64,000 bases of DNA, from positions 11,853 to 75,852 of the forward strand of contig DATJLR010000003.1 of assembly GCA_035509435.1 (NCBI GenBank). The letters run 5' to 3'. Below are positions 4,332-48,061 of the stretch, piece by piece; position 1 is the stretch's first letter; every line of letters starts with the position of its first letter. The notes beneath the pieces were generated by a model. That model made no database searches, was not told the DNA's origin, and was given only the letters and a program-made list of their open reading frames with translations. The DNA comes from Minisyncoccota bacterium (GTDB taxonomy: Bacteria; Patescibacteriota; Minisyncoccia; UBA6257; 2-01-FULL-56-20). Position numbers and translations under genes: made by a program.

Positions 4332-5693
4332 ATGAAACTCCAAACGCGGAGGCGCATATTCTATGTGTTCATCCTTTTGTTCGTGGTGATCGGCGCGGCC
4401 GTCGTGCTCTACGCGGAGGGCTGGCGCCTTGACCTTTCTACGCTGCAGGCCGAAAAGGCCGGCGGGGTTTACGTGCGCTCGTATCCCTCAAGCGCGACGA
4501 TCACGCTGGGCGGCAAGCCGATCCAGAACCAGTCGGCGTTCCTGAGCAGCGGGACGTTCATCTCCGGACTCCTCCCGAAGACCTATACGCTCAAACTCTC
4601 GGCGCCAGGCTATGACGCATGGATCGAGGCCGTGCCCGTCACGCCCACACTTGTCACGGAAATGAAGTATGCCGTGCTTGTTCCCGCATCATCCACCGCG
4701 ATCACAACGAGCAGTCCGGTAAGCGATTACTTCCAGGCGGACGGCGGCGTAGTGACGGAAAGCGGCGGTGCGATCACGTGGCTCGGCAAAACGATCGGGC
4801 ATGGCACGATCATAAGCCACAGCACCGACCTCAAGACCGCCGTCATCCGATCCGTGAACGCCAAGACCGGCGCAGCATCATACTCGCTCTATAACTTTAC
4901 GAACAACACCAGCACTCCCCTTTCCGCGGCGCTCGCCGGCGCGGGCATCCGGCTGACGGCGACGACCAACCTATTCATCGATCCATATGACGACACGGCA
5001 GTCTTCGCGCAGACCGCGGCGAGGATCGTGCGGATCGATGCCGGAACCCTCCGCGCAACGACGGTCACGACGGCGCCGGCCGGCGAGACGATCGAAACCC
5101 CCATCGCCGTCTCGCCGTCCGTTATGGCGTGGGCGCTTTTCTCGGCGCCTTCTCCCTCCACGGGTACAACGGGGTCTTCGCGCATCGTGGTCTATGATAA
5201 ATTCTCCGGCAACACCGTGGACAGCTCGCTCACGGTGCCCGGCGCCGTCAAGCAGCTCGCCTGGGTCCGGAACAACGCGCTCGGCGTGCTCGAGAACACC
5301 AACGCGCTGTACCTTTATAACGTGTCGGCCGAACATCTCTCGGTGCTCGCGGATGACGTAAAGCAGTTCTACCCCGCGGCGGACGGCAATGCGGTGGCGG
5401 CGCTCGAATACGATAGCTTGGAAATATTCTCGTTCGTGAGCGGGCAGCCCAGCTATTATCGCTTTACCCTTCCGGAGACCGCGAATGTGCAGGGTCTCGC
5501 GTGGTACAAAGATGACGCGCACCTTTTTGTGGAATATCAGAACCACGTTTCGTTCCTTGACCTTGCCGACACGGCGCTCAAGAACCTTACGACCATTTCG
5601 GACGGCACCGACGCGTCGTATGACGCGCAGGAAAACTCTCTTTATATCATCGATCCGGCGCAGGAACTGATCCGATTCGACTTCCCTCAATAG
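4332..5693 (+). CDS. membrane-anchored PEGA-domain protein with beta-rich extracellular region
   Basis: 453 aa; N-terminal TM helix; 'VYVRSYPSSATITLGGKPI...YTLKLSAPGYDAW' is a PEGA motif. Confidence 0.65.
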   Translation: MKLQTRRRIFYVFILLFVVIGAAVVLYAEGWRLDLSTLQAEKAGGVYVRSYPSSATITLGGKPIQNQSAFLSSGTFISGLLPKTYTLKLSAPGYDAWIEAVPVTPTLVTEMKYAVLVPASSTAITTSSPVSDYFQADGGVVTESGGAITWLGKTIGHGTIISHSTDLKTAVIRSVNAKTGAASYSLYNFTNNTSTPLSAALAGAGIRLTATTNLFIDPYDDTAVFAQTAARIVRIDAGTLRATTVTTAPAGETIETPIAVSPSVMAWALFSAPSPSTGTTGSSRIVVYDKFSGNTVDSSLTVPGAVKQLAWVRNNALGVLENTNALYLYNVSAEHLSVLADDVKQFYPAADGNAVAALEYDSLEIFSFVSGQPSYYRFTLPETANVQGLAWYKDDAHLFVEYQNHVSFLDLADTALKNLTTISDGTDASYDAQENSLYIIDPAQELIRFDFPQ

Positions 5694-18557: not shown

Positions 18558-18680
18558 TTCCTGCGCGTCGCCGTTGTCGTCCGTCGGCGAATCATCGGTG
18601 TTCTTTTCGATGTCCTCCGCGTCGATATCGCTCTCCAGGCTGTCATCCTTCGCCTCTATGTCTTCGTCGTCTTGTGCCAT
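18558..18680 (-). CDS. 40-aa hyper-acidic small protein (putative; last gene of helicase operon)
   Basis: MAQDDEDIEAKDDSLESDIDAEDIEKNTDDSPTDDNGDAQE*; 23 of 40 residues are D/E; GC-rich third positions; stop 20 nt before the terminator. Not in the ORF track (under 60 aa). Confidence 0.35.
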
Positions 18681-20306: not shown

Positions 20307-20672
20307 CTAAAATTTTTCAATGTCCTTTGCTAGTTCTCGAAAGATGAAGACCCCTAATACAAGAACCGCTACGACATACAAGATTCCAACCGCCCAATGC
20401 GAAGAGAATTCAACTTCAAACAAAAATTGATATATACCAATGATTACTTGCACCAGCGCGAAGGCGATTAAAACCAACGAATATTTTCTGGTCGATTTAT
20501 CGAGTTCGTGAGCCGTTTTTCGATTCCTCAAAGCGGCCTTAATTTGAAGGATCGTTAATTTATGCATTTTCTGTTCCTCGACCATACCACTACTTGGAGG
20601 CCCTATGGTCTCAATTTCCCCTAGAAGATCTTGATCTTCAGATAGATATAGCTCCATGTTCTTATTATCCAT
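20307..20672 (-). CDS. small membrane protein, hypothetical (AT-rich, 3 nt upstream of helicase start)
   Basis: 121 aa, about 40% GC, two C-terminal TM helices. Confidence 0.45.
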   Translation of the reverse strand: MDNKNMELYLSEDQDLLGEIETIGPPSSGMVEEQKMHKLTILQIKAALRNRKTAHELDKSTRKYSLVLIAFALVQVIIGIYQFLFEVEFSSHWAVGILYVVAVLVLGVFIFRELAKDIEKF

Positions 20673-20752
20673 GCAAAAAGTTTACGCCACATCATAAAAT
20701 ACACAAGATTGACGAATTCGAAAGAATATATAAGATTGAGGGACGTACTAAA

Positions 20753-21709
20753 ATGGAACTCTTCTCGAAAAGATACTCGGCAAAAGGGCCTCGCAATGAC
20801 GTTATTCTTTCCGATACACTTAGAAAGCGTCTGGAACAGGAGTTAAAGTTCATAACTTCAAGTAAAGATTATATTGAAGCCTTTCTTTTGGTTGATAATG
20901 AAAAAGAGAATAAGATTTATTTGCATTCTCTTACCCTACGAGATTTAAGTTCTCGGGAGTTGGGTTATGATTTAACGTCCTTGGTTTACTGTAAAACTAT
21001 GGATTTCAATGCGAACCCCGATGATAATCAACTTCTAGACCTTATAGAACTATTAATCATTTTTTGTAAAGAAATAAACCGTAAAGAATTAATTGAGAGG
21101 TTACAAAACATCTTCAAGGAAGAGGGAGATCAATTTATAATTCACAATTTCATAATTTTTAAGAAGGATGAAACTGGGCTGAAATCTCTCGTGCCCTTAA
21201 TTAAAGATAAGAACCTCCAAGTCAAATTAGAGGAATACTTTACTGAAGCATCGAGAGGTAGTAAACCAAATTATGAGATGCTAGCCCGTATTGCTGCGGA
21301 TATTGTACAGATACTCTTTAGTGCTCCAAAGCAAAAAGAAACAAAAAAATATTCTGAACAATTATGTAGCGATATTGCATATAAATGGACGGATAAAAAG
21401 AATGCCCAAGCGTTGGCAATTCTCCTTAGTGAAACCGTTAAAAATGCTAAGGAACTAAGTAATCAGATTAGTAATATTCGACATACAGACAGAAGCACTA
21501 TACCAGTTAGAACGCCTAGCCTATATAGATTAATTGCCTTAAAAAATTCTTCAATTGCTGAAGTGGTTATACTTTCCTTGCCAGAAAATTATATTTTAGA
21601 CCAAAATCCGGAAGAGATTAAAAATCACTATCTCGGTAAATACAACCTCAAAGCTGATAATGGCTGGTTGGTTGAAGATGAAATAAAGCCGGAAGATATA
21701 CCTTTCTAA
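20753..21709 (+). CDS. hypothetical protein (AT-rich island)
   Basis: About 318 aa from the ATG at 20753, preceded by GAGGGA 9 nt upstream. The ORF track's 20594 start overlaps the opposite-strand gene. No recognisable motif. Confidence 0.45.
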   Translation: MELFSKRYSAKGPRNDVILSDTLRKRLEQELKFITSSKDYIEAFLLVDNEKENKIYLHSLTLRDLSSRELGYDLTSLVYCKTMDFNANPDDNQLLDLIELLIIFCKEINRKELIERLQNIFKEEGDQFIIHNFIIFKKDETGLKSLVPLIKDKNLQVKLEEYFTEASRGSKPNYEMLARIAADIVQILFSAPKQKETKKYSEQLCSDIAYKWTDKKNAQALAILLSETVKNAKELSNQISNIRHTDRSTIPVRTPSLYRLIALKNSSIAEVVILSLPENYILDQNPEEIKNHYLGKYNLKADNGWLVEDEIKPEDIPF

Positions 21710-21739
21710 AGCAAGACCAGATAGGCAACGACTCAATCT

Positions 21740-22927
21740 CTAAAAATTCTTAACAATAAGATGCTGCACGGCCCTATCATTCCTACCTTTCATATTGTAA
21801 GTGTATTTCTTATCGAACGAAGAGATGTTTATATTCTGCTTGCCTTTGTATAAGCCGTAGATGAACGACGTCCTTTTTATCACCAAAATAAATTTGGCCT
21901 TAGTGGTATATAAATAACGCGCAAGCCGAAATTGGTCATCACGATCAAAGCTTTTCTTTTCGTAATCACTGAAATCGGTATCGTATGGAGGGTCGAGGAA
22001 AATAAAATCTTTTGAAGAAAGCTTCAGTTTATTGAGAAATGTTTCAAAATCCTCGTTGTAAATTACCGCTCCTGCCAAGAGATTATGGGCCTCCAAAGAA
22101 AAGAGCCGGTCGACTTTCTTTCTAAAATTTTTAGTGTTGTACCCTATCCCTCCATATGGGATATTAAATTCTCCGTTGGCGTTAAATCGGAACATGGATC
22201 CATAGCAAAACTCTCGGATGAAATAATAGTTTGCGATGGCTTTTGCGCGGCTGATATGGTTCATTCCCCTTTTTTCATTCATAACATCCCTAAAATGCAT
22301 ATAAAATCCACTGCGAAATGCAGTCTCAATGTTCTTATGAAGATCCTCAATTGAGATCCTGCCGCTACTGAACTCAAGCTTTTTGACACGTGTGATCTTA
22401 TCAATGAGATTGTCAATGATGCGCTTTTCAAGATTATTCCTGTCTATACAAAAGTCCGCCCTGAACAGCCCATTGAATGCCTGAATTTGTCCGTGTATGT
22501 AATCTTCCGTAAGGCGACGCAGATCGTTTTTGCTAATAGAATCGGCAGCATAACGGGCGTACAAAGAGATGAACTGCCTCTGGAAAAGAAGGATGTAATT
22601 CGGAATTTTCTCCCAATTGAAGACATACTCATAGATTTCCTTAGAAAATTCTTTTGTATTATATTTCCCACCTACGAAGCGGTAAAAATCCATCAGCTCT
22701 ACGGCAATATCGTTGATGGCGGCTCTTTCTGGTTGTAACTCAAAAAATATCGCACCACCACCAAAGAACGGCTCAATATAGCGATCAAACGCAGGAATGT
22801 GATGCTTAATAAAAGAGAATTCCCGTTTTTTTCCGCCAGGCCACTTGATCAATGCCTGTGTATTAGGTGTGGATATCTCCCGATTGGAAGGTCGCAAGAG
22901 GTTCAAATCAATGTGCTGTTTTTGCAT
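21740..22927 (-). CDS. Dam-like (D12 class) N6-adenine DNA methyltransferase
   Basis: 395 aa; 'IKWPGGKK', 'EPFFGGGAIFFEL' (SAM binding), catalytic 'FLDPPYD'. Confidence 0.85.
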   Translation of the reverse strand: MQKQHIDLNLLRPSNREISTPNTQALIKWPGGKKREFSFIKHHIPAFDRYIEPFFGGGAIFFELQPERAAINDIAVELMDFYRFVGGKYNTKEFSKEIYEYVFNWEKIPNYILLFQRQFISLYARYAADSISKNDLRRLTEDYIHGQIQAFNGLFRADFCIDRNNLEKRIIDNLIDKITRVKKLEFSSGRISIEDLHKNIETAFRSGFYMHFRDVMNEKRGMNHISRAKAIANYYFIREFCYGSMFRFNANGEFNIPYGGIGYNTKNFRKKVDRLFSLEAHNLLAGAVIYNEDFETFLNKLKLSSKDFIFLDPPYDTDFSDYEKKSFDRDDQFRLARYLYTTKAKFILVIKRTSFIYGLYKGKQNINISSFDKKYTYNMKGRNDRAVQHLIVKNF

Positions 22928-23630
22928 TTTCTATAATTTTCTTTAGTTGTGAAATTTTTAAAATGTTATTGCGCTGTCGATGAACCATCCGATGGCAGTT
23001 TGAACACAGAGGAACGACTTTCTTCAACGCTTCATCCGCCGCCATCTTTTCTCCGGACGCTTCATGCTGATGAATAGGATGCGTGTGATGAATCTCGATA
23101 TAATCGCGGCCGCGTTCGCCGTAGAATTTCAAGAAATCGAACTCGCACGCTATGCAAGGAATTTTTCCGCCCTTCTTAAAGTGCGCCCTGGCAAGCTGGA
23201 TCAGTTTTCGCGACCGCTCTCTGAACGCAACATTTTTTGTCGAGAGAAATCCTTCTTCAACGATGATGTCTTTGTAGTCATCTTTGAATTCTTGCTCTCT
23301 TATCTCTTCACTGAAGCCCTGCTCCTGAAGCGCTTCAACAACTTCTTCATAACCAGCATTCAAATATCTTCTACCCTCGTCCGTAATGAAGAAAAGTTTG
23401 TCCTTATATATCGCAAGATTCTTCTTCTCTAAGGTATCGTGCGATTTTAGGTTGCGCACTTTTTGGCTGAACTTTGTATCGGTGCGGCCGCTGAGTATTT
23501 CAGCATCTTCCCCTTCGGGCTTCAGTGTGTCAGTTAATTCCTTGATAAGATACTCGGTCGGAACGCCTTCCGGATGGCGCTCGATGATCTTAAGGGCGGG
23601 AATTACGAGGTCCGATTCGGCGTAAATCAT
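22908..23630 (-). CDS. HNH-family endonuclease (probable restriction endonuclease partner of the Dam-like MTase)
   Basis: 240 aa; 'CIACEFDF...IEIHHTHPIH...PLCSNCHRMVH' HNH/zinc motif; 20-nt overlap with the MTase gene; AT-rich. Confidence 0.75.
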   Translation of the reverse strand: MIYAESDLVIPALKIIERHPEGVPTEYLIKELTDTLKPEGEDAEILSGRTDTKFSQKVRNLKSHDTLEKKNLAIYKDKLFFITDEGRRYLNAGYEEVVEALQEQGFSEEIREQEFKDDYKDIIVEEGFLSTKNVAFRERSRKLIQLARAHFKKGGKIPCIACEFDFLKFYGERGRDYIEIHHTHPIHQHEASGEKMAADEALKKVVPLCSNCHRMVHRQRNNILKISQLKKIIENAKTAH

Positions 23631-23735: not shown

Positions 23736-24190
23736 TTAATCCTTTTTTAACGAATCCCCCCATCCCCACTCGCTGTACCCCACGCCTTCGCGGTAGCAAC
23801 GGATCGCCTCGCGGATATAGGGAATGGTGTTTGCGGGCAAGGCGTCGAGCGGGAACCAGCGCAGGTCGTCGCACTTGCCGGGCTCCATGTTGGCCGCTCG
23901 CCGCTCCACGCCGCGGGCTCAAAGAAGAAGTCCAGCCGCTCGTCGTCGGCGCGGCGGTGCATCACAACCTTGAGCCGCAGGTCCGCAGCCCCGATCGTGA
24001 CGCCCGACTCCTCCATCGCCTCCCGCGCGGTGGCCGCCGTGAGCGCCTCGCCGCCATCGGCGTGACCGGCCACCAGGCTGTAATTGCCATCCTCGTAGCC
24101 GGTGTTTGCGCGGCGGAGCATCAGGATCTTTCCGTCCTTCACGAAAAGCACGTAGACGGAGGCGATAAGCTTGAAGCGATCGGCGGTCAT
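23736..24190 (-). pseudogene. Nudix hydrolase with apparent 1-nt frameshift near 23895-23905
   Basis: From ATG 24188-24190 the frame reads a Nudix fold ('MTADRF...LVAGHADGGEALTAATAREAMEESGV') up to '...[11 protein letters not shown]'. The conserved C-terminus '[42 protein letters not shown]' continues in the adjacent frame (stop at 23736-23738). Confidence 0.6.
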
Positions 24191-24210
24191 GAAAACATTG
24201 TAGCACCTTA

Positions 24211-24246
24211 TAAAAAAGAAAAGGCGCATCCCCGGAGGAATGCGCC
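24211..24246 (-). terminator. intrinsic terminator of gene 24269..25192 (copy 1 of GGCGCA...TGCGCC hairpin repeat)
   Basis: Minus-strand GGCGCATTCC-TCCGG-GGATGCGCC followed by TTTTCTTTTTTAT. Confidence 0.6.
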
Positions 24247-24268
24247 ATGTTTTTCACTTTGTGCCAAG

Positions 24269-25192
24269 CTAGATGACCATGTCGGCTTCGATCCGTGCGC
24301 GCACCGCCTGCACGGCGAGAGGAGCAACGTTCGCTCCTTTGAATATCGCCTTCTGGTCTTTTTCCTTCTTCGGCCAGTAGCGGATGACGTCTTCGATCAT
24401 GGCGAGGCCCGTGGAAAGGCTTGCATGGGTGGATTCGATCCCGGCTCCGAGCGCAAGACAATCATTGTCCGAGGTCATGAACCTGACATTCACCTCGTCA
24501 CCCCGCTTCTTGGGACGGGCAAAGGTGAATATCGTGCTTCCCGCAAAGATCCCCACCCGAAGCACCGTCGCCCCGAATTTCCCTTCCATTTCCCGATCGG
24601 GCTCTGCCCGGATGAGAGTGAAAAGTCCCCGCTGATAGACGAGACGAAGGAATTTGTCGAACTGCAGGTGCAGCGCGTGACGCTGGGCATTGAAGTAGAC
24701 GTCCATCTTTGCGTCCAGATGATCGTCTTGGACAATGGCCCTGATCACATTCTTGAGCAGATGAACTCCGACAATCTGATAGACGATATCTCCCGCTCCA
24801 AGCTCCACGAGATTGATCATTTGTTCGTCCCGCTCTTTCTCGTAAAGTTTCCGGAACCATACAACTGCGGGGTCTTCGCTTGTCCGCACCACTTCGTACG
24901 CGTCCAGGATAAGCTGCGGCAGGTGGAGGGTGAGGTCGTAAAATTCGTTCTTTTCGTCGGCGAGTATGGTAAGACCCTGGAGCCATCTGCTAAAGAACAG
25001 GGCAAATAATGCCTCACCTTTCTCGCTTGCGTTGGTGGAAGCGGCATGCATCCCTAACCGGAATATTACATCTGCTTTTTTCACTTTTGCTCCTTTATCC
25101 TTCATAAGAGGATTTACTGCTGACGAAATTGTACATTTAAATTCCAATTTCGTCAAAAGACAACGAGCCCATTCCTGGCGCTGGTCCTTCAT
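24269..25192 (-). CDS. hypothetical protein
   Basis: 307-aa ORF; GAGG 4 nt upstream of ATG; no recognisable domain; bracketed by near-identical 36-nt repeat copies. Confidence 0.5.
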   Translation of the reverse strand: MKDQRQEWARCLLTKLEFKCTISSAVNPLMKDKGAKVKKADVIFRLGMHAASTNASEKGEALFALFFSRWLQGLTILADEKNEFYDLTLHLPQLILDAYEVVRTSEDPAVVWFRKLYEKERDEQMINLVELGAGDIVYQIVGVHLLKNVIRAIVQDDHLDAKMDVYFNAQRHALHLQFDKFLRLVYQRGLFTLIRAEPDREMEGKFGATVLRVGIFAGSTIFTFARPKKRGDEVNVRFMTSDNDCLALGAGIESTHASLSTGLAMIEDVIRYWPKKEKDQKAIFKGANVAPLAVQAVRARIEADMVI

Positions 25193-25198
25193 CGCCTC

Positions 25199-25234
25199 AT
25201 AAAAAGAAAAGGCGCACTCCCGGAGGAATGCGCC
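25199..25234 (-). repeat. copy 2 of the 36-nt hairpin+T-run repeat, immediately 5' of gene 24269..25192
   Basis: ATAAAAAGAAAAGGCGCACTCCCGGAGGAATGCGCC, 2 mismatches versus copy 1 at 24211-24246; terminator-like hairpin ends 16 nt before the start codon. Confidence 0.6.
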
Positions 25235-25353
25235 CTTTGGTCAGGCCACTTCCGTCTCGATGTAGTGTGCCCACGAAAGCCAGATCTCCATCAGGACGGA
25301 TTGGTCCACGGCGTGGGCCGACGTTGATGGTATTTCTGTCATGCCCATTTCCC

Positions 25354-25382
25354 TTGACCACACCCTTCCGATGGCCTATCCT
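25354..25382 (+). promoter_or_regulatory. candidate sigma70 promoter for 25411..25950
   Basis: TTGACC (25354-25359), 17-nt spacer, TATCCT (25377-25382); RBS AAAGGAGAGGG; ATG 25411. Confidence 0.4.
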
Positions 25383-25410
25383 ATCCGGTGGAAAGGAGAG
25401 GGCACTCTCT

Positions 25411-25950
25411 ATGACATTCACAATTCAAAACCCTGAGGCTGATCCGGTGATCGCTAAACAGGCCACCGACGCGTTCGATCTGCTGACCCCGCATTGGAGG
25501 GAACTGCTTCCTCCGATCACCGCCATCATCGTAAATGAACGGTTCGACCGCATCGCGGATCTCCGGCCCATGATCGACGCCCGGTTCTCCAACTGGGGAG
25601 ACCATGAGTGGGAGCAGGTCTACGCTTTTTCACCCAAATACAGTTTGAATGAGGCCGAAGTGTGGCTCCGTCCGTACTATTCGTTCGATTCTTTTGCGCG
25701 AGAGGTGTATTGCCTCTTGGCACAGATCGTATGGACCACAACCCCGGACATTCGCGCCGAGGTCGCAGCGGCCACCCACAAATCATTTCACACGGCCAAT
25801 GCGGCTCTGTTGTATTTCAGCGTTTCCTTTGGACGCTTTTTTCTCAACCGAAAGCTTCTTCGTGAACGGAACCTGGCGGCATGGTTCCTCATGGAGCGCC
25901 TCGATGACCTGGTGGAAACCAAGCAGCTTCAGCGACTTCAGGTGACGTGA
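25411..25950 (+). CDS. hypothetical protein
   Basis: 179 aa from the ATG at 25411 with strong SD. The ORF track's 25228 start lacks an RBS. No recognisable domain. Confidence 0.5.
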   Translation: MTFTIQNPEADPVIAKQATDAFDLLTPHWRELLPPITAIIVNERFDRIADLRPMIDARFSNWGDHEWEQVYAFSPKYSLNEAEVWLRPYYSFDSFAREVYCLLAQIVWTTTPDIRAEVAAATHKSFHTANAALLYFSVSFGRFFLNRKLLRERNLAAWFLMERLDDLVETKQLQRLQVT

Positions 25951-26030
25951 TGGCGAACGATCGCCGTCTTCCGCAAAACTCGCGAGGCCCCGGCGCAATG
26001 TCGGGGCCTCTTTCTTTATTACGATGAATT

Positions 26031-26237
26031 TTATGCTGAAAGCTTCTTTACGATCTCGTCCCATGAATGCACGCGCTCGATCCCCGGCGGAAGCTCGCCC
26101 TGGTTCCATGGCTGATCAAAAAGGAACACCTTGATGCCGGCCTCGGCGCAGACCGTCGCGTTGGTCATGTGGTCCTCGATCATGATCGTGGCCCCAGAGT
26201 CCGCCACCACCTCGTCAAAATCAATGCCGATGCGCAT
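26031..26237 (-). pseudogene. HAD-superfamily 5'(3')-deoxyribonucleotidase-like remnant (internal deletion of core/cap)
   Basis: 68 aa: HAD motif I 'MRIGIDFDEVVADSG' joined directly to the C-terminal motif III/IV region 'IMIEDHMTNATVCAEAGIKVFLFDQPWNQ...RVHSWDEIVKKL'. Intact family members are about 180-200 aa. Confidence 0.5.
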
Positions 26238-26314
26238 GGGTTAATGATACCGTAAATAAGAAAGGGCGCCACCGTTTTAGTGACGCCCCTTGATCCACTG
26301 TAACCCTTCCCGGC

Positions 26315-26581
26315 CTATTTCATCGGCCATATTGCGGCCACGAAGATCCCCTGGCTTTCCTCGCGGCTGACGACGCGAGCGAAGGTCATTTCGTGGCCGC
26401 CCTCCAGACAGACCAAAAGCTTGCAATGCTTGCCCATGGCGAGCAACTGAAGAAAGCAGTCCATGCCCTCGACAAGCGCTCGCGGCCCTGTGAAGTCGCC
26501 GAATTTTTGGACCACTTTTTCGGCGCTCACACCATTCGCGTCACACCCTTCAACGCTCGTCCTGATTACCTTTTCGATCAT
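26315..26581 (-). CDS. hypothetical small protein
   Basis: 88-aa ORF between the HAD remnant and HIT gene; no recognisable motif. Confidence 0.35.
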   Translation of the reverse strand: MIEKVIRTSVEGCDANGVSAEKVVQKFGDFTGPRALVEGMDCFLQLLAMGKHCKLLVCLEGGHEMTFARVVSREESQGIFVAAIWPMK

Positions 26582-26666
26582 GTAAAGCCTCCTCTTCTTT
26601 TCGCAGCTGCAAATCTGCCAACAATATACATCCGGGCAGGAATGGAGTCAATCGCAATCCGCGCGT

Positions 26667-27110
26667 TTACATCGCTGCGGCGATCTCCTTTGCCACCGCA
26701 TCGAGCTCCGCTTCCGGCGTCGTCTCGCGCGAGCCGGGCCGGTACAGGAACTTGCGCGGCTCGTATTCGGTGATGCCCTCGTCCCCTGCCGTGCGCGGCA
26801 CGATGTGCAGATGGAAGTGCGGGATGGATTGCCCGGCCACGGCGCCTTCGTTCCAGGCATGATTGAAGCCCGTGGCGCCGAACGCTTTCCAGAGCGCGGC
26901 CTTCACCTCCGCCGCGAGCGCAAAGATCGCGCGGCGCTCGTCGTCCTTCAGTTCATCGAACGTCGCCACGTGCCGCGCCGGGATCACAAGCGTGTGCCCG
27001 GGCGTGATCGGGATGTTCGTCAGGAACGCGATCGCAAGCTCGTTGCGCTTGACCGTGCGCGCCGGAATGTCCGGCAATGTGCAATAGATGCAAGAGGAAG
27101 ATGCGGCCAT
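26667..27110 (-). CDS. HIT-family (histidine triad) nucleotide hydrolase
   Basis: 147 aa; 'HFHLHIVPR' histidine triad; N-terminal 'CIYC' zinc-like motif. Confidence 0.85.
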   Translation of the reverse strand: MAASSSCIYCTLPDIPARTVKRNELAIAFLTNIPITPGHTLVIPARHVATFDELKDDERRAIFALAAEVKAALWKAFGATGFNHAWNEGAVAGQSIPHFHLHIVPRTAGDEGITEYEPRKFLYRPGSRETTPEAELDAVAKEIAAAM

Positions 27111-27111
27111 A

Positions 27112-27675
27112 TTATTTGTGGCCGAAGATCTTCTCTTTCAGCTCCTTTTTGAATTCAGGGTCGAATTGCGTGCGCAATAAATATAATGCCAGCTCTTTAT
27201 CGCGAAAATCCGGCCGTTGGGAAAGTTCCAGAAATTCATCGAACGAAACGGGCTTTATAGTGATCCTCTCACCCGCATCAAGATGCGGGTCCTGGATATG
27301 CTTACAGTCACGTGCGATGAAAGTATAAACGGTCCATTCAAGAGAATTGAATGGCTTCCGCTCCCTGAACATGGTCCAATCATCCGAAACGTATCCGGTC
27401 TCTTCCAAAAGCTCACGTTTGGCTCCCGTCGACGCTTCCTCTCCTTCATTACATCGGCCGCCCGGAATAGAAACAAACGGCGCCCGATGTGGTTGCTCCT
27501 GTTCCTCGATCAAAATTTTATCTCCCACGACCGCGATCACATCCGCGCTGTCCGGCCGGCTGATCTTCTCGTATATCTCGGTCGTCCCATCGAACACTTT
27601 CTGTTCCCATTGCCACACCTCGAACACCTGCCCTTTGAACATCCGTTTTGCGTTCGGTGGAATTCCTTTTTTCAT
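27112..27675 (-). CDS. Nudix hydrolase (ADP-ribose pyrophosphatase-like)
   Basis: 187 aa; Nudix box 'GGRCNEGEEASTGAKRELLEETGY'; separated from the HIT gene by 1 nt. Confidence 0.85.
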   Translation of the reverse strand: MKKGIPPNAKRMFKGQVFEVWQWEQKVFDGTTEIYEKISRPDSADVIAVVGDKILIEEQEQPHRAPFVSIPGGRCNEGEEASTGAKRELLEETGYVSDDWTMFRERKPFNSLEWTVYTFIARDCKHIQDPHLDAGERITIKPVSFDEFLELSQRPDFRDKELALYLLRTQFDPEFKKELKEKIFGHK

Positions 27676-27930: not shown

Positions 27931-28674
27931 GTGAAGCTATCAAAAATGCAATTCGCAACCGTGGGTCTCGAGCTCCTGACCCTCACCATCTTCGCGTCCA
28001 CAGCAATCGGACAGGCACGGCAAAATGTTGTGCATCAGGCATTCTATGCCTTAAGCACATCCGCCAATGGAACCTCCACCCAAACCATCAACGGTAATTA
28101 TGTCGGCAACTGGAACTGGCTCAACAGCAATTACAGCTCCTACAATGTCGTCAAAAATTGGTACAACTATTACCAAAACGGCAGCTGGACATGCTATCCG
28201 TCAGATTTTGCCGCAGCTGGCGACGTGTGCCCAAATCTCACCGGCCATCCCGTCGCGAGTTTCTATTCCAATCCTGGCGGCTATGGCTATAGCCCGATTA
28301 TCCCTGAGGTTGCCTATGGCCGCGGCGGTCAATGCACTTATTTTGCGAACCTTGTCGTCTATCGCTCGGGAGTCTACACCGGAAGTTTCCCGAGCCTATC
28401 CAATATGTGGGCTGCTGGAAACTCCAATATGCAACAGGTCCAGATCGGGGACGTGATCCTGAGGTACAACGTCGCTGGCTATGTCAATCATATCGCCATT
28501 GTGGTACAGGTCTATACGAATGGCGGTTCCGTGACAAGCGTTGACGTCGTCGATTCGGATTACTTCCCTGATTATCTTTCGGGCGTAAGTTACCCGGAAG
28601 TGATCACACGGCACAATTTCCCCATCGCCAACCTGCAGGGATATTTCAGGATATGGAAGGTGCCCGGCTACTAA
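27931..28674 (+). CDS. secreted CHAP-domain peptidoglycan amidase/peptidase
   Basis: 247 aa; GTG start 5 nt after GAAAGGGG; signal/TM; catalytic Cys in 'GGQCTYFANLVVY' and His in 'VNHIAIVV', typical CHAP spacing. Confidence 0.65.
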   Translation: MKLSKMQFATVGLELLTLTIFASTAIGQARQNVVHQAFYALSTSANGTSTQTINGNYVGNWNWLNSNYSSYNVVKNWYNYYQNGSWTCYPSDFAAAGDVCPNLTGHPVASFYSNPGGYGYSPIIPEVAYGRGGQCTYFANLVVYRSGVYTGSFPSLSNMWAAGNSNMQQVQIGDVILRYNVAGYVNHIAIVVQVYTNGGSVTSVDVVDSDYFPDYLSGVSYPEVITRHNFPIANLQGYFRIWKVPGY

Positions 28675-28751
28675 AAACCAAGTTCTGGAGGGGTAAAACA
28701 ACCCCTCCATTTTTTAATCTTTTTTTAATGTTAATATGCTATGCTCATCTT

Positions 28752-29348
28752 ATGAAAAAATTATTAAACAGAAAATATATCGCTTTTGCTTGCATGGTCA
28801 CGGTCACAATCGTTGCCATCGGATGCATTTTCCTGTGGCGATATCACTTTAGCCCCGTTCAATCCCGCACCTCAACGATGGCTCTCCCCGAAATTCAAAC
28901 ACCTTCAGGCTGGTATTTGTGGGGAAAAGATCATCTTCCTGCGGGCACTAACGGCCCCGTCAATAACATTACCTTCGGAAATAAGCCAATGGCATCAGCG
29001 GACGATGCGGCGACCATGATAGTTGTTAACGCGCAAGATCCCTTTGGAAGAACCGATGAGCAATGGATTGCTGATGTCCTCTCCTCTTCCCTGGAAGAGC
29101 TGGGAAGTCCTACATCCACGCGGCTGTGGAGTGCGATCAATGGGAGGCTCGTACTAAGGGCGGTAACGCAAACACCTGCGGGTGGCTATGATCTTAATTA
29201 CTATATCCTTAATGATGGGGTGGAATATATATTCCAACTTGATCCGACACATGCCGATGATAATATATCATCCAGCTCCGACGCACAGACGCTGCACACC
29301 ATGGTTCAGAATTTTGCCGAGAGCCTGCCGCCCATCGTTTCTCAATAA
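28752..29348 (+). CDS. membrane-anchored hypothetical protein downstream of CHAP gene
   Basis: About 198 aa from the ATG at 28752 (MKKLLNRK...), N-terminal TM helix. Confidence 0.45.
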   Translation: MKKLLNRKYIAFACMVTVTIVAIGCIFLWRYHFSPVQSRTSTMALPEIQTPSGWYLWGKDHLPAGTNGPVNNITFGNKPMASADDAATMIVVNAQDPFGRTDEQWIADVLSSSLEELGSPTSTRLWSAINGRLVLRAVTQTPAGGYDLNYYILNDGVEYIFQLDPTHADDNISSSSDAQTLHTMVQNFAESLPPIVSQ

Positions 29349-47533: not shown

Positions 47534-48061
47534 TTAATATAAACCCTCGTTTTTAAATGGGATCAGGGAAAATATCACCGCCTCTATATAATATTTTGTC
47601 CTATCGATCACATCATCCGTCAAAATGCCGATCGCGCCATTGCCGTGTCCGGATTTGCTCCTCTTGAACACGATGTCGTCCGCCTCCGCGAGCTCTTTGC
47701 CCTGCTTGACAAGCTCCGCGATCTGTTTCGGCAAAAAGAACGTGCCGGTCCTCCCCTTCCCGTACCTGCCATCCTTCGATCTGACCACCACCCACGCGAA
47801 GACCTCCATTTCCGAACCCTTTTCCTCCACGCCGCCCTCGATCCCCACCCAAAAATCCGCGGGCGTTCCCTTTGAAACATTTTCCACGCGATTCCAGGCG
47901 CCCTGATACGCCTCGGCATCGCTCATGGGCTGGTCGCCCACTCCCGACGCCGCGGCGACGCCTTCCACCTCAAATTGTTCGGAGGGAAATATCTTGCGAA
48001 ATCCCTCAAGGGCAGCGTTCAGCTTGACGGGATTTTTTGAGGCGACGATGATCTTTTTCAT
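47534..48061 (-). CDS. inosine/xanthosine triphosphatase (YjjX/DUF84 non-canonical NTP phosphatase)
   Basis: 175 aa; 'IIVASKNPVKLNAA' N-terminus and 'FWVGIEGGV' are typical of YjjX-family ITPases. Confidence 0.75.
   Translation of the reverse strand: MKKIIVASKNPVKLNAALEGFRKIFPSEQFEVEGVAAASGVGDQPMSDAEAYQGAWNRVENVSKGTPADFWVGIEGGVEEKGSEMEVFAWVVVRSKDGRYGKGRTGTFFLPKQIAELVKQGKELAEADDIVFKRSKSGHGNGAIGILTDDVIDRTKYYIEAVIFSLIPFKNEGLY

Follow-up and report, generated by a model that had tools for sequence, protein, structure and literature searches.

The 64,000-nucleotide stretch analysed here (hereafter the window, 64 kb) belongs to a metagenome-assembled genome (MAG) of a Candidatus Paceibacterota bacterium (Patescibacteria, or candidate phyla radiation, CPR; locus tags VMA75_0333x-0340x), a tiny-genome groundwater/soil organism, and our subject is the region between positions 23736 and 27675, in which genes of nucleotide phosphohydrolase families are interleaved with small orphan open reading frames (ORFs). 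Read along the minus strand, in order of falling coordinates, the region holds a Nudix hydrolase gene (Nudix1), a HIT hydrolase gene, the ORF o88, a remnant of an NT5C-like HAD 5'-nucleotidase gene, o179 (which lies on the plus strand), o271 and a second, frameshifted Nudix gene (Nudix2; table 1). This gene content was confirmed by ORF listing together with Pfam and NCBIfam scans; the existing annotation of the source genome names the HIT, NUDIX, PIF1 helicase and DNA adenine methylase genes and describes the small ORFs as hypothetical. A first reading of the letters alone (the original prediction) had reported a phosphohydrolase-rich neighbourhood, all named features of which are indeed present, had taken the mixture of intact and damaged genes as a sign of recent turnover, and had suggested that the orphans could be the sensor or effector parts of a nucleotide-signalling module of defence or anti-defence. 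According to a motif scan, the two Nudix boxes and the one HIT motif of the region are the only ones in the whole 64 kb, and the order Nudix1-HIT-Nudix2 recurs in relatives; the clustering of phosphohydrolase genes is therefore not a matter of chance.

Table 1. Genes, gene remnants and transcription signals of the phosphohydrolase region and its flanks, in window positions.
Feature	Positions	Strand	Basis or remark
Low-GC island: HNH endonuclease-like ORF (240 amino acids, aa), Dam-like methyltransferase (395 aa), unassigned ORFs (371 and 121 aa)	20307..23630		GC content at third codon positions (GC3), PADLOC, Pfam
Nudix2, MutT-like small Nudix gene, frameshifted, in two frames	23736..24190	-	DNA alignment with intact orthologues
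Terminator 3' of o271	24223..24246	-	Terminator scan
o271 (maximal ORF 307 aa, 24269-25192)	24269..25084	-	Start set by homologues and ribosome-binding site
Terminator 3' of the 138-aa gene stump	25207..25238	-	Seemed at first to lack an upstream gene
3' stump of a 138-aa gene, last 23 codons (25247-25315) and terminator	25207..25315	-	tblastn and blastn against the closest relative (contig L093)
o179, 179 aa, predicted ATLF-like zincin fold	25411..25950	+	AlphaFold2 model
Bidirectional terminator hairpin in the gap between HAD remnant and o179	25984..26010	both	Scan; conserved in L093
Remnant of NT5C-type HAD 5'-nucleotidase, 68 aa	26031..26237	-	Pfam and PHROG matches, alignment with phage NT5C
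Intrinsic terminator 3' of o88	26261..26291	-	Terminator scan
o88, 88 aa, singleton	26315..26581	-	Strong GAGGAGG ribosome-binding site, own promoter-like site, own terminator
Promoter-like site TTGACT-17-TATATT upstream of o88	26623..26651	-	Promoter scan
HIT hydrolase, 147 aa	26667..27110	-	Pfam HIT and triad motif
Nudix1, ADP-ribose-pyrophosphatase-like Nudix hydrolase, 187 aa	27112..27675	-	Pfam NUDIX; first gene of a predicted two-gene operon
Two secreted/membrane-type ORFs, CHAP-like (247 aa) and 231 aa, with hydrophobic N-termini	27931..29348	+	Pfam, synteny

Nudix1 and HIT form one predicted transcription unit, and Pfam scores, motifs and the positions of stop and start codons all agree with the description, in the original prediction, of an intact Nudix gene directly coupled to a HIT gene. 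The HIT ATG is placed 1 nt past the Nudix1 stop codon, and with this spacing the two genes are probably translationally coupled; they would also be co-transcribed. Nudix1 scores 45.7 bits against the Pfam NUDIX model (PF00293; cut-off 21.1) and carries an intact Nudix box, GRCNEGEEASTGAKRELLEETGY, which fits the pattern GX5EX7REUXEEXGU, so that box and score together place it, at the level of sequence, in the Nudix hydrolase superfamily. Among solved structures, NudF (5c7q, E 6e-15) and the ADP-ribose pyrophosphatases come closest to it. With house-cleaning pyrophosphatases such as NudF (5C7Q), the Thermus ADPRase (1V8I) and Escherichia coli NudE it shares the complete box and a length of about 185 aa, and it aligns with NudF and the ADPRases over its full length (E 6e-15 to 1e-6). 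It differs from them in belonging to a Patescibacteria-specific orthologue group and in scoring far below every equivalog cut-off, the best NCBIfam model being NudE with 41.1 bits against an equivalog cut-off of 169. More than 1360 homologues were found; among the 120 listed, identity is 53-73% (not counting the self-hit at 100%), and where a source is named it is mostly Patescibacteria. Because of the number and source of these homologues, Nudix1 is regarded as a core gene of Patescibacteria.

The HIT protein reaches 83 bits with the Pfam HIT model (PF01230; threshold 21.5) and retains the triad HFHLHIV, and by this HxHxHxx motif and score its sequence is assigned to the HIT superfamily. Bacillus subtilis Hit (1y23, E 1e-18) and the Ap3A hydrolases of the Fhit type (Fhit, E 7e-16) are its closest solved relatives, and the NCBIfam scan gave no equivalog-level assignment. 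The triad and the single-domain size are shared with the Hint and Fhit branches (B. subtilis Hit 1Y23, human Fhit, Ap4A phosphorylase), and the tail HIVPRTAGDEG resembles the Fhit-type motif VLPRKAGD; what sets the protein apart from these branches is that its gene is tightly coupled to a Nudix gene, an arrangement confined to this small clade. The two coupled genes differ in base composition, GC3 being 0.57 in Nudix1 (0.63-0.65 in the L007 and L006 orthologues described below) and 0.84 in HIT (0.76-0.79), a difference that is stable across relatives.

To place the region among its relatives, the window was compared with the related contigs L005, L006/L008, L007 and L093/L094. In L006/L008 (Nudix1 70% identical) an AddA-like helicase gene lies on one side of Nudix1, HIT and Nudix2, which are directly adjacent to one another and are followed by TrmB-RNR-DHOdh-glycerate kinase-PPDK as in the window. 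L007 (Nudix1 76%, Nudix2 about 87%, PIF1 79%) shows the order o77-Nudix1-HIT, then an ASCH-HAD fusion gene, an ASCH gene, Nudix2, an AAA_15/AAA_21 ATPase gene with a GC content of 35% and PIF1. In L005 an alpha/beta-hydrolase gene separates Nudix1 and HIT, and Nudix2 is absent. The closest relative is L093/L094 (RNR 93%, TrmB 96%, AddA 86%, o77 79%), where the gap of about 2.8 kb between TrmB and o77 is occupied by a 138-aa gene, an o179 homologue (40% identity, same orientation) and a 181-aa ORF; Nudix1, HIT, Nudix2, PIF1, o88 and o271 are all absent from that locus. By tblastn, o88, o179 and o271 were found in none of L005-L007. The intervals between the anchors hold differing genes from relative to relative, and these differences, together with three decayed genes and a low-GC island in the window, bear out the recent turnover that had been proposed.

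The coupling of Nudix1 to HIT does not extend beyond these relatives. At none of 53 Nudix1 loci that are more distant does a HIT motif lie within 3 kb, and HIT is missing from the 25 Pfam families seen most often downstream of distant Nudix1, which makes the coupling a feature of one clade. The two nearest ORFs downstream of Nudix1 at these loci (102 ORFs) represent 140 Pfam families, with NUDIX in four and HAD in three ORFs. As an observation in its own right, positions 2104-3606 of L007 encode the ASCH-HAD fusion, which is 304 aa long and begins 1-2 nt past HIT, and next to it a paralogous ASCH protein of 139 aa that stands alone; the unusual domain fusion could act on modified nucleotides.

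Three genes of the region are decayed, namely the NT5C remnant, the stump of the 138-aa gene and Nudix2, and two of the four hydrolase genes (the HAD remnant and Nudix2) are dead. In Nudix2, codon-for-codon alignment with the intact 144-146-aa orthologues of L007 and L006 places one missing base at about 23892/23893, downstream of the intact Nudix box, and the frame is shifted over the last ~50 residues; the sequence yields no intact full-length Nudix frame. The two halves are 87% and 86% identical to the L007 protein in tblastn, and the intact orthologue resembles small MutT/NUDT1-type enzymes. The independent MEGAHIT contig L065 contains a 16.4-kb stretch that is 100% identical to the window, the Nudix2 deletion included, and since it carries the identical sequence the frameshift is reproducible at the level of assembly. 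The frameshifted Nudix gene and the internally deleted 5'-nucleotidase had both been noticed in the original prediction, and the alignments uphold both.

The HAD remnant matches Pfam NT5C only below threshold (16.6 against 24.8 bits, profile positions 128-171 of 180) and phrog_420 with its C-terminal part only (E 1.9e-11). For comparison the 204-aa 'phosphatase' gp144 of Gordonia phage ClubL was used, which itself reaches 33.8 bits with Pfam NT5C. Residues 1-15 of the remnant align to residues 5-19 of the phage protein, that is, to HAD motif I (DxDxV); the main BLASTP alignment joins residues 3-64 to 121-187, its convincing part being about 16-64 against 134-187. This two-segment alignment is best read as an in-frame deletion that removed about 115 internal residues, by which the regions of motifs I and IV would have been kept and the cap and motifs II and III lost. 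Because motifs II and III are missing, the product cannot be active. As judged from sequence, the likeness to the NT5C 5'(3')-deoxyribonucleotidases is confined to the N-terminal DxDxV and the C-terminal motif-IV region, which align to the phage enzyme, whereas only 68 of ~180-200 residues are retained; the ORF has neither the four motifs in one chain nor a Pfam score above threshold, and it is a remnant, not an enzyme. A viral scan gave no relatives of it, and a PDB sequence search with the 68 aa returned only spurious matches to repeat ('Pizza') proteins, which were discarded.

The third decayed gene is the stump, which matches the 138-aa gene of L093 with 78% identity in tblastn (E 3e-7) and 83% over 77 nt in blastn. 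In L093 this gene (5192-5608) is intact and divergently paired with the o179 homologue. The 77-nt conserved block (25250-25326) was also considered as a small RNA, a proposal that was rejected as its in-frame translation is the C-terminus of the L093 138-aa protein. In Rfam searches, covering the whole window at gathering thresholds and 23.5-28 kb at E values up to 1, the matches were limited to a tRNA-Pro and to a BjrC68 hit that is terminator-like and below threshold.

Promoter and terminator scans fit several separate units, not a single operon. The HAD remnant and o179 converge on the shared bidirectional terminator, and a separate promoter-like site and terminator belong to o271. The terminators that follow o271 (24213-24246) and the stump (25201-25234) are 94% identical over 34 nt.

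The three orphans, given in the original prediction as proteins of 307, 179 and 88 aa, exist as ORFs, but the first of them is really 271 aa long, and two of the three belong to small families, which leaves the 88-aa ORF as the one true singleton. All 16 homologues of o271 start with MKKA, and the matching start in the window is a GTG at 25084 with AAGGAG upstream, preceded by a promoter-like TTGACG-17-TACAAT; homologue starts and ribosome-binding site therefore point to a protein of 271 aa instead of 307. The o271 family, regarded as restricted to Patescibacteria, has over 40 members: 17 proteins from a word-indexed search and 26 further loci from a pattern scan, all in Patescibacteria genomes and unclassified metagenome contigs. 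Flanks could be used at 18 loci; there, near-identical contigs aside, each neighbour occurs once only, no locus has a HIT motif and a single one has a Nudix box nearby. The AlphaFold2 model, made from a 17-sequence alignment (pLDDT 82.9), predicts a fold in which a helical bundle precedes a five-stranded sheet. A BFVD search with o271 found nothing, and a PADLOC match to Csx16 (E 8e-4, 41 residues) was judged to be noise or a generic domain match.

One distant o271 homologue (32%) deserves separate mention. In the segment 3700-13000 of the 345-kb contig Ga0307375_10000004 (L085/L092, in IMG/VR) it lies amid many short same-strand ORFs, near two tRNAs and near genes for a UvrD helicase, a DUF1937 protein, an RF-1 domain protein, a nucleoside 2-deoxyribosyltransferase-like protein, a sulfotransferase and an NT5C nucleotidase; this contig could represent a jumbo phage or else a CPR genome that has been misclassified. 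That o271 and NT5C are close together on it was not accepted as a link, as it is a single case and that NT5C is unrelated in sequence to the HAD remnant of the window.

For o179 the word-indexed search found no relatives, and an exhaustive HMMER search yielded 12 representatives with 26-40% identity, none of which has a Pfam match. The AlphaFold2 model (pLDDT 94.8, pTM 0.89) confidently predicts a zincin fold of the ATLF type, like that of the anthrax LF-N and EF-N domains and the PPEP proteases. The protein has no HExxH, and the 12-sequence family alignment contains no conserved His or Cys, hence none of the zinc-binding or catalytic motif of M34-type peptidases. In this respect o179 resembles LF-N and EF-N, which are inactive binding domains, and not the PPEP proteases. 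It differs from the ATLF-like zincins as a whole (the PA-binding N-terminal domains of LF and EF, the Certhrax N-domain, PPEP-2 and PPEP-3) in showing no detectable sequence similarity to them and in being a stand-alone 179-aa Patescibacteria protein, in which no signal peptide was seen by inspection. Profile searches against PDB sequences (queries labelled A1 and A3) found nothing. Other members of the o179 family occur in varied gene contexts. In two of four other loci examined (L095 2894-5601; L093 3820-6513) the homologue stands beside, or about 1.4 kb from, a gene for a TrmB-family regulator, and the o179 of the window would also be near TrmB if the 6.5-kb PIF1/R-M/Nudix2/o271 segment (R-M, restriction-modification) were removed; there may be a weak association of o179 with TrmB. 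Also beside TrmB in L093 (4911-5036), where it is called as a gene, is a counterpart with 85% identity of an extremely acidic ORF of 41 codons, MAQDDEDIEAKDDSLESD..., at 18558-18680 (minus strand) of the window.

No Pfam, NCBIfam, PHROG or PADLOC match was obtained for o88, and it has no relatives in the metagenome or viral contig scans, its 90%-identity cluster having one member. The GC3 of the orphans (0.65-0.72) lies between that of the core genes, including HIT and Nudix2 (0.76-0.84), and that of the R-M island (20.3-23.6 kb; 0.31-0.49).

This low-GC island sits between Nudix2 and PIF1. In its candidate type II R-M pair (21740-23630), the methyltransferase clearly matches the PADLOC model MTase_II (E 4e-53) and MethyltransfD12, and the 240-aa HNH-like ORF, which overlaps the methyltransferase by 20 nt, gives only weak HNH and mREase_IV matches as the candidate endonuclease partner. 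The 121-aa ORF is membrane-like, and its PADLOC match to a SLATT model was set aside as noise or generic. The equivalent slot of L007 holds the low-GC AAA_15/AAA_21 ATPase, which is 508 aa long, and because of these two insertions the Nudix2-PIF1 slot looks like a small hot spot for defence genes. On the other side of the region, the CHAP-like ORF (24.1 bits, just below the Pfam threshold) and the 231-aa ORF are inserted between o77 (DUF1059) and Nudix1; both are absent in L007, where o77 adjoins Nudix1. Elsewhere in the window, a 175-aa ORF (47534-48061, minus strand) is, by eye only, a candidate inosine/xanthosine triphosphatase (YjjX-like) and would, if so, be another house-cleaning enzyme.

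Our results suggest, with a probability of roughly 0.75, that the region is a mosaic in which clade-specific housekeeping genes lie in a turnover hot spot, and not a hidden phage-defence signalling module. The ancestral core would have been o77-Nudix1-HIT-...-Nudix2, specific to one Paceibacterota clade and bounded on one side by the AddA-like helicase-nuclease gene and on the other by the PIF1/TrmB-RNR-DHOdh-glycerate kinase-PPDK block. The hot spots of insertion and deletion would then be three intervals, HIT-Nudix2, Nudix2-PIF1 and o77-Nudix1, which in this genome hold unrelated accessory genes (o88, o179, o271, the CHAP-like ORF and the R-M island) and the three decayed genes. With regard to function, the closest characterised relatives suggest that Nudix1 would cleave ADP-ribose or ADP-sugars to AMP and a sugar phosphate, and that the Fhit/Hint-like HIT protein would release AMP by cleaving dinucleoside polyphosphates or nucleoside phosphoramidates, so that both would feed AMP back into the nucleotide pool. 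A role in nucleotide-pool cleaning or AMP recycling or salvage is plausible, by analogy, in a reduced genome.

Several observations weigh against this reading. A HAD-type gene lies downstream of HIT in two related genomes, although in different subfamilies (ASCH-HAD in L007, the NT5C remnant here), and Nudix and HAD domains recur downstream of distant Nudix1 (four and three of the 102 ORFs at 53 loci); there may therefore be some functional linkage of phosphohydrolases beyond shared ancestry. The region borders an R-M island, the 1-bp deletion of Nudix2 rests on assemblies and not on reads, and the predicted structure of o271 shows no recognisable known fold. Likewise, 'ADP-ribose pyrophosphatase' is only the nearest label for Nudix1, because the protein scores far below the NCBIfam equivalog cut-offs. 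The first two of these observations could also be explained by a functional cluster for nucleotide catabolism or salvage, in which Nudix1 and HIT make nucleoside monophosphates that a HAD nucleotidase encoded downstream turns into nucleosides, recently inactivated here by the loss of the HAD and Nudix2 genes. The ASCH-HAD fusion immediately past HIT in L007, the NT5C remnant two genes past HIT in the window and the RNR and DHOdh genes nearby are consistent with such a cluster. However, the HAD of L007 (PF00702/PF13419) and the NT5C remnant are not orthologues, since they belong to different subfamilies and are barely alignable; L006 has no HAD gene, the closest relative (L093/L094) has none of these genes at the locus, and the HAD of the window, without motifs II and III, cannot be active. 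A salvage cluster is thus considered unlikely.

The module envisaged in the original prediction, in which an immune signalling nucleotide is broken down by the Nudix, HIT and HAD enzymes and the orphans provide the sensor or effector, draws on the adjoining R-M island and on the ATPase in that slot of L007, on the fold of o179, which is otherwise known from toxin-associated domains, and on matches of HIT to PADLOC ThsC2 (HIT family, E 2.5e-13) and, weakly, of Nudix1 to PDC-S07. The presence of a Nudix-type module in some phage NAD+-reconstitution (NARP) enzymes (PMC13464706) was also counted in its favour. However, the ThsC2 match (48 bits) is weaker than that to the generic Pfam HIT model and reflects a shared domain only, and the PDC-S07 match was judged to be noise or a generic domain. 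No cyclase, TIR, SMODS, NADase or effector model of Pfam or PADLOC matches the segment, and PADLOC gives no meaningful match for any orphan. The models of o271 and o179 show no CD-NTase, SMODS or TIR fold, and o179 is without any catalytic motif. Orphans and hydrolases also occur independently of each other: Nudix1-HIT, with Nudix2, is kept without the orphans in L006 and L007, which is the second of the two observations that the original prediction had named as counting against itself; the o271 family lacks a conserved neighbour at its 18 other loci; and the closest o179 homologue is found at the corresponding chromosomal position of a relative with neither Nudix nor HIT there. Nudix1 is, in addition, a near-universal Patescibacteria gene, and half of the hydrolase genes are dead. 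With no synthase or effector match, with folds of o271 and o179 that are unrelated, with no family-model match for o88 and with hydrolases that are syntenic chromosomal genes, nothing places the region in CBASS, Pycsar, Thoeris, type III CRISPR or a known anti-defence system. To the phage Acb1, Apyc1 and NARP pathways the likeness is one of general chemistry only, phosphohydrolases acting on nucleotides, and the genes of the window differ from them in being the chromosomal core of a clade, with no partner synthase, NADase or effector and with orphans that are unlinked. Synteny has already largely refuted the defence module, and we regard it as very improbable.

Equally remote is the explanation that a chimeric or erroneous assembly or binning produced the juxtaposition, the frameshift and the deletion. 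The source is a MAG, and the related long-read MAG L005 has many split genes; against this stand the identity of the independent contig L065 over 16.4 kb, three contigs of 20-460 kb that share the same HIT gene, the synteny of both flanks with relatives and the agreement of terminators and promoters with gene boundaries. A further proposal, doubtful yet not quite so remote, concerns the orphans: o179, as a catalytically dead ATLF-like zincin, and o271 would be lineage-specific accessory proteins in the interaction of these episymbiotic bacteria with host cells or phages, for example as binding or decoy domains like LF-N and EF-N, and the TrmB-AddA segment would then be a small defence/interaction island grown around Nudix-HIT.

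What, then, does the mosaic reading mean for such loci and for these bacteria? On the one hand, it calls for caution, in that a pile-up of phosphohydrolase genes amid orphans mimics a signalling-defence locus, and four related genomes show an ancestral housekeeping order that has been eroded and interrupted. On the other hand, it adds a case of genes being gained, lost and degraded at one hot spot of a reduced Paceibacterota genome, a setting in which pseudogenes are commonly considered scarce. Overall, the region is an unremarkable set of housekeeping genes in a part of the chromosome that varies, and the two small uncharacterised protein families defined along the way, one with a confident prediction of an inactive, ATLF-like zincin and one without a fold match, are minor by-products. 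The coupling of Nudix and HIT, confined as it is to one clade, could guide the testing of substrates.

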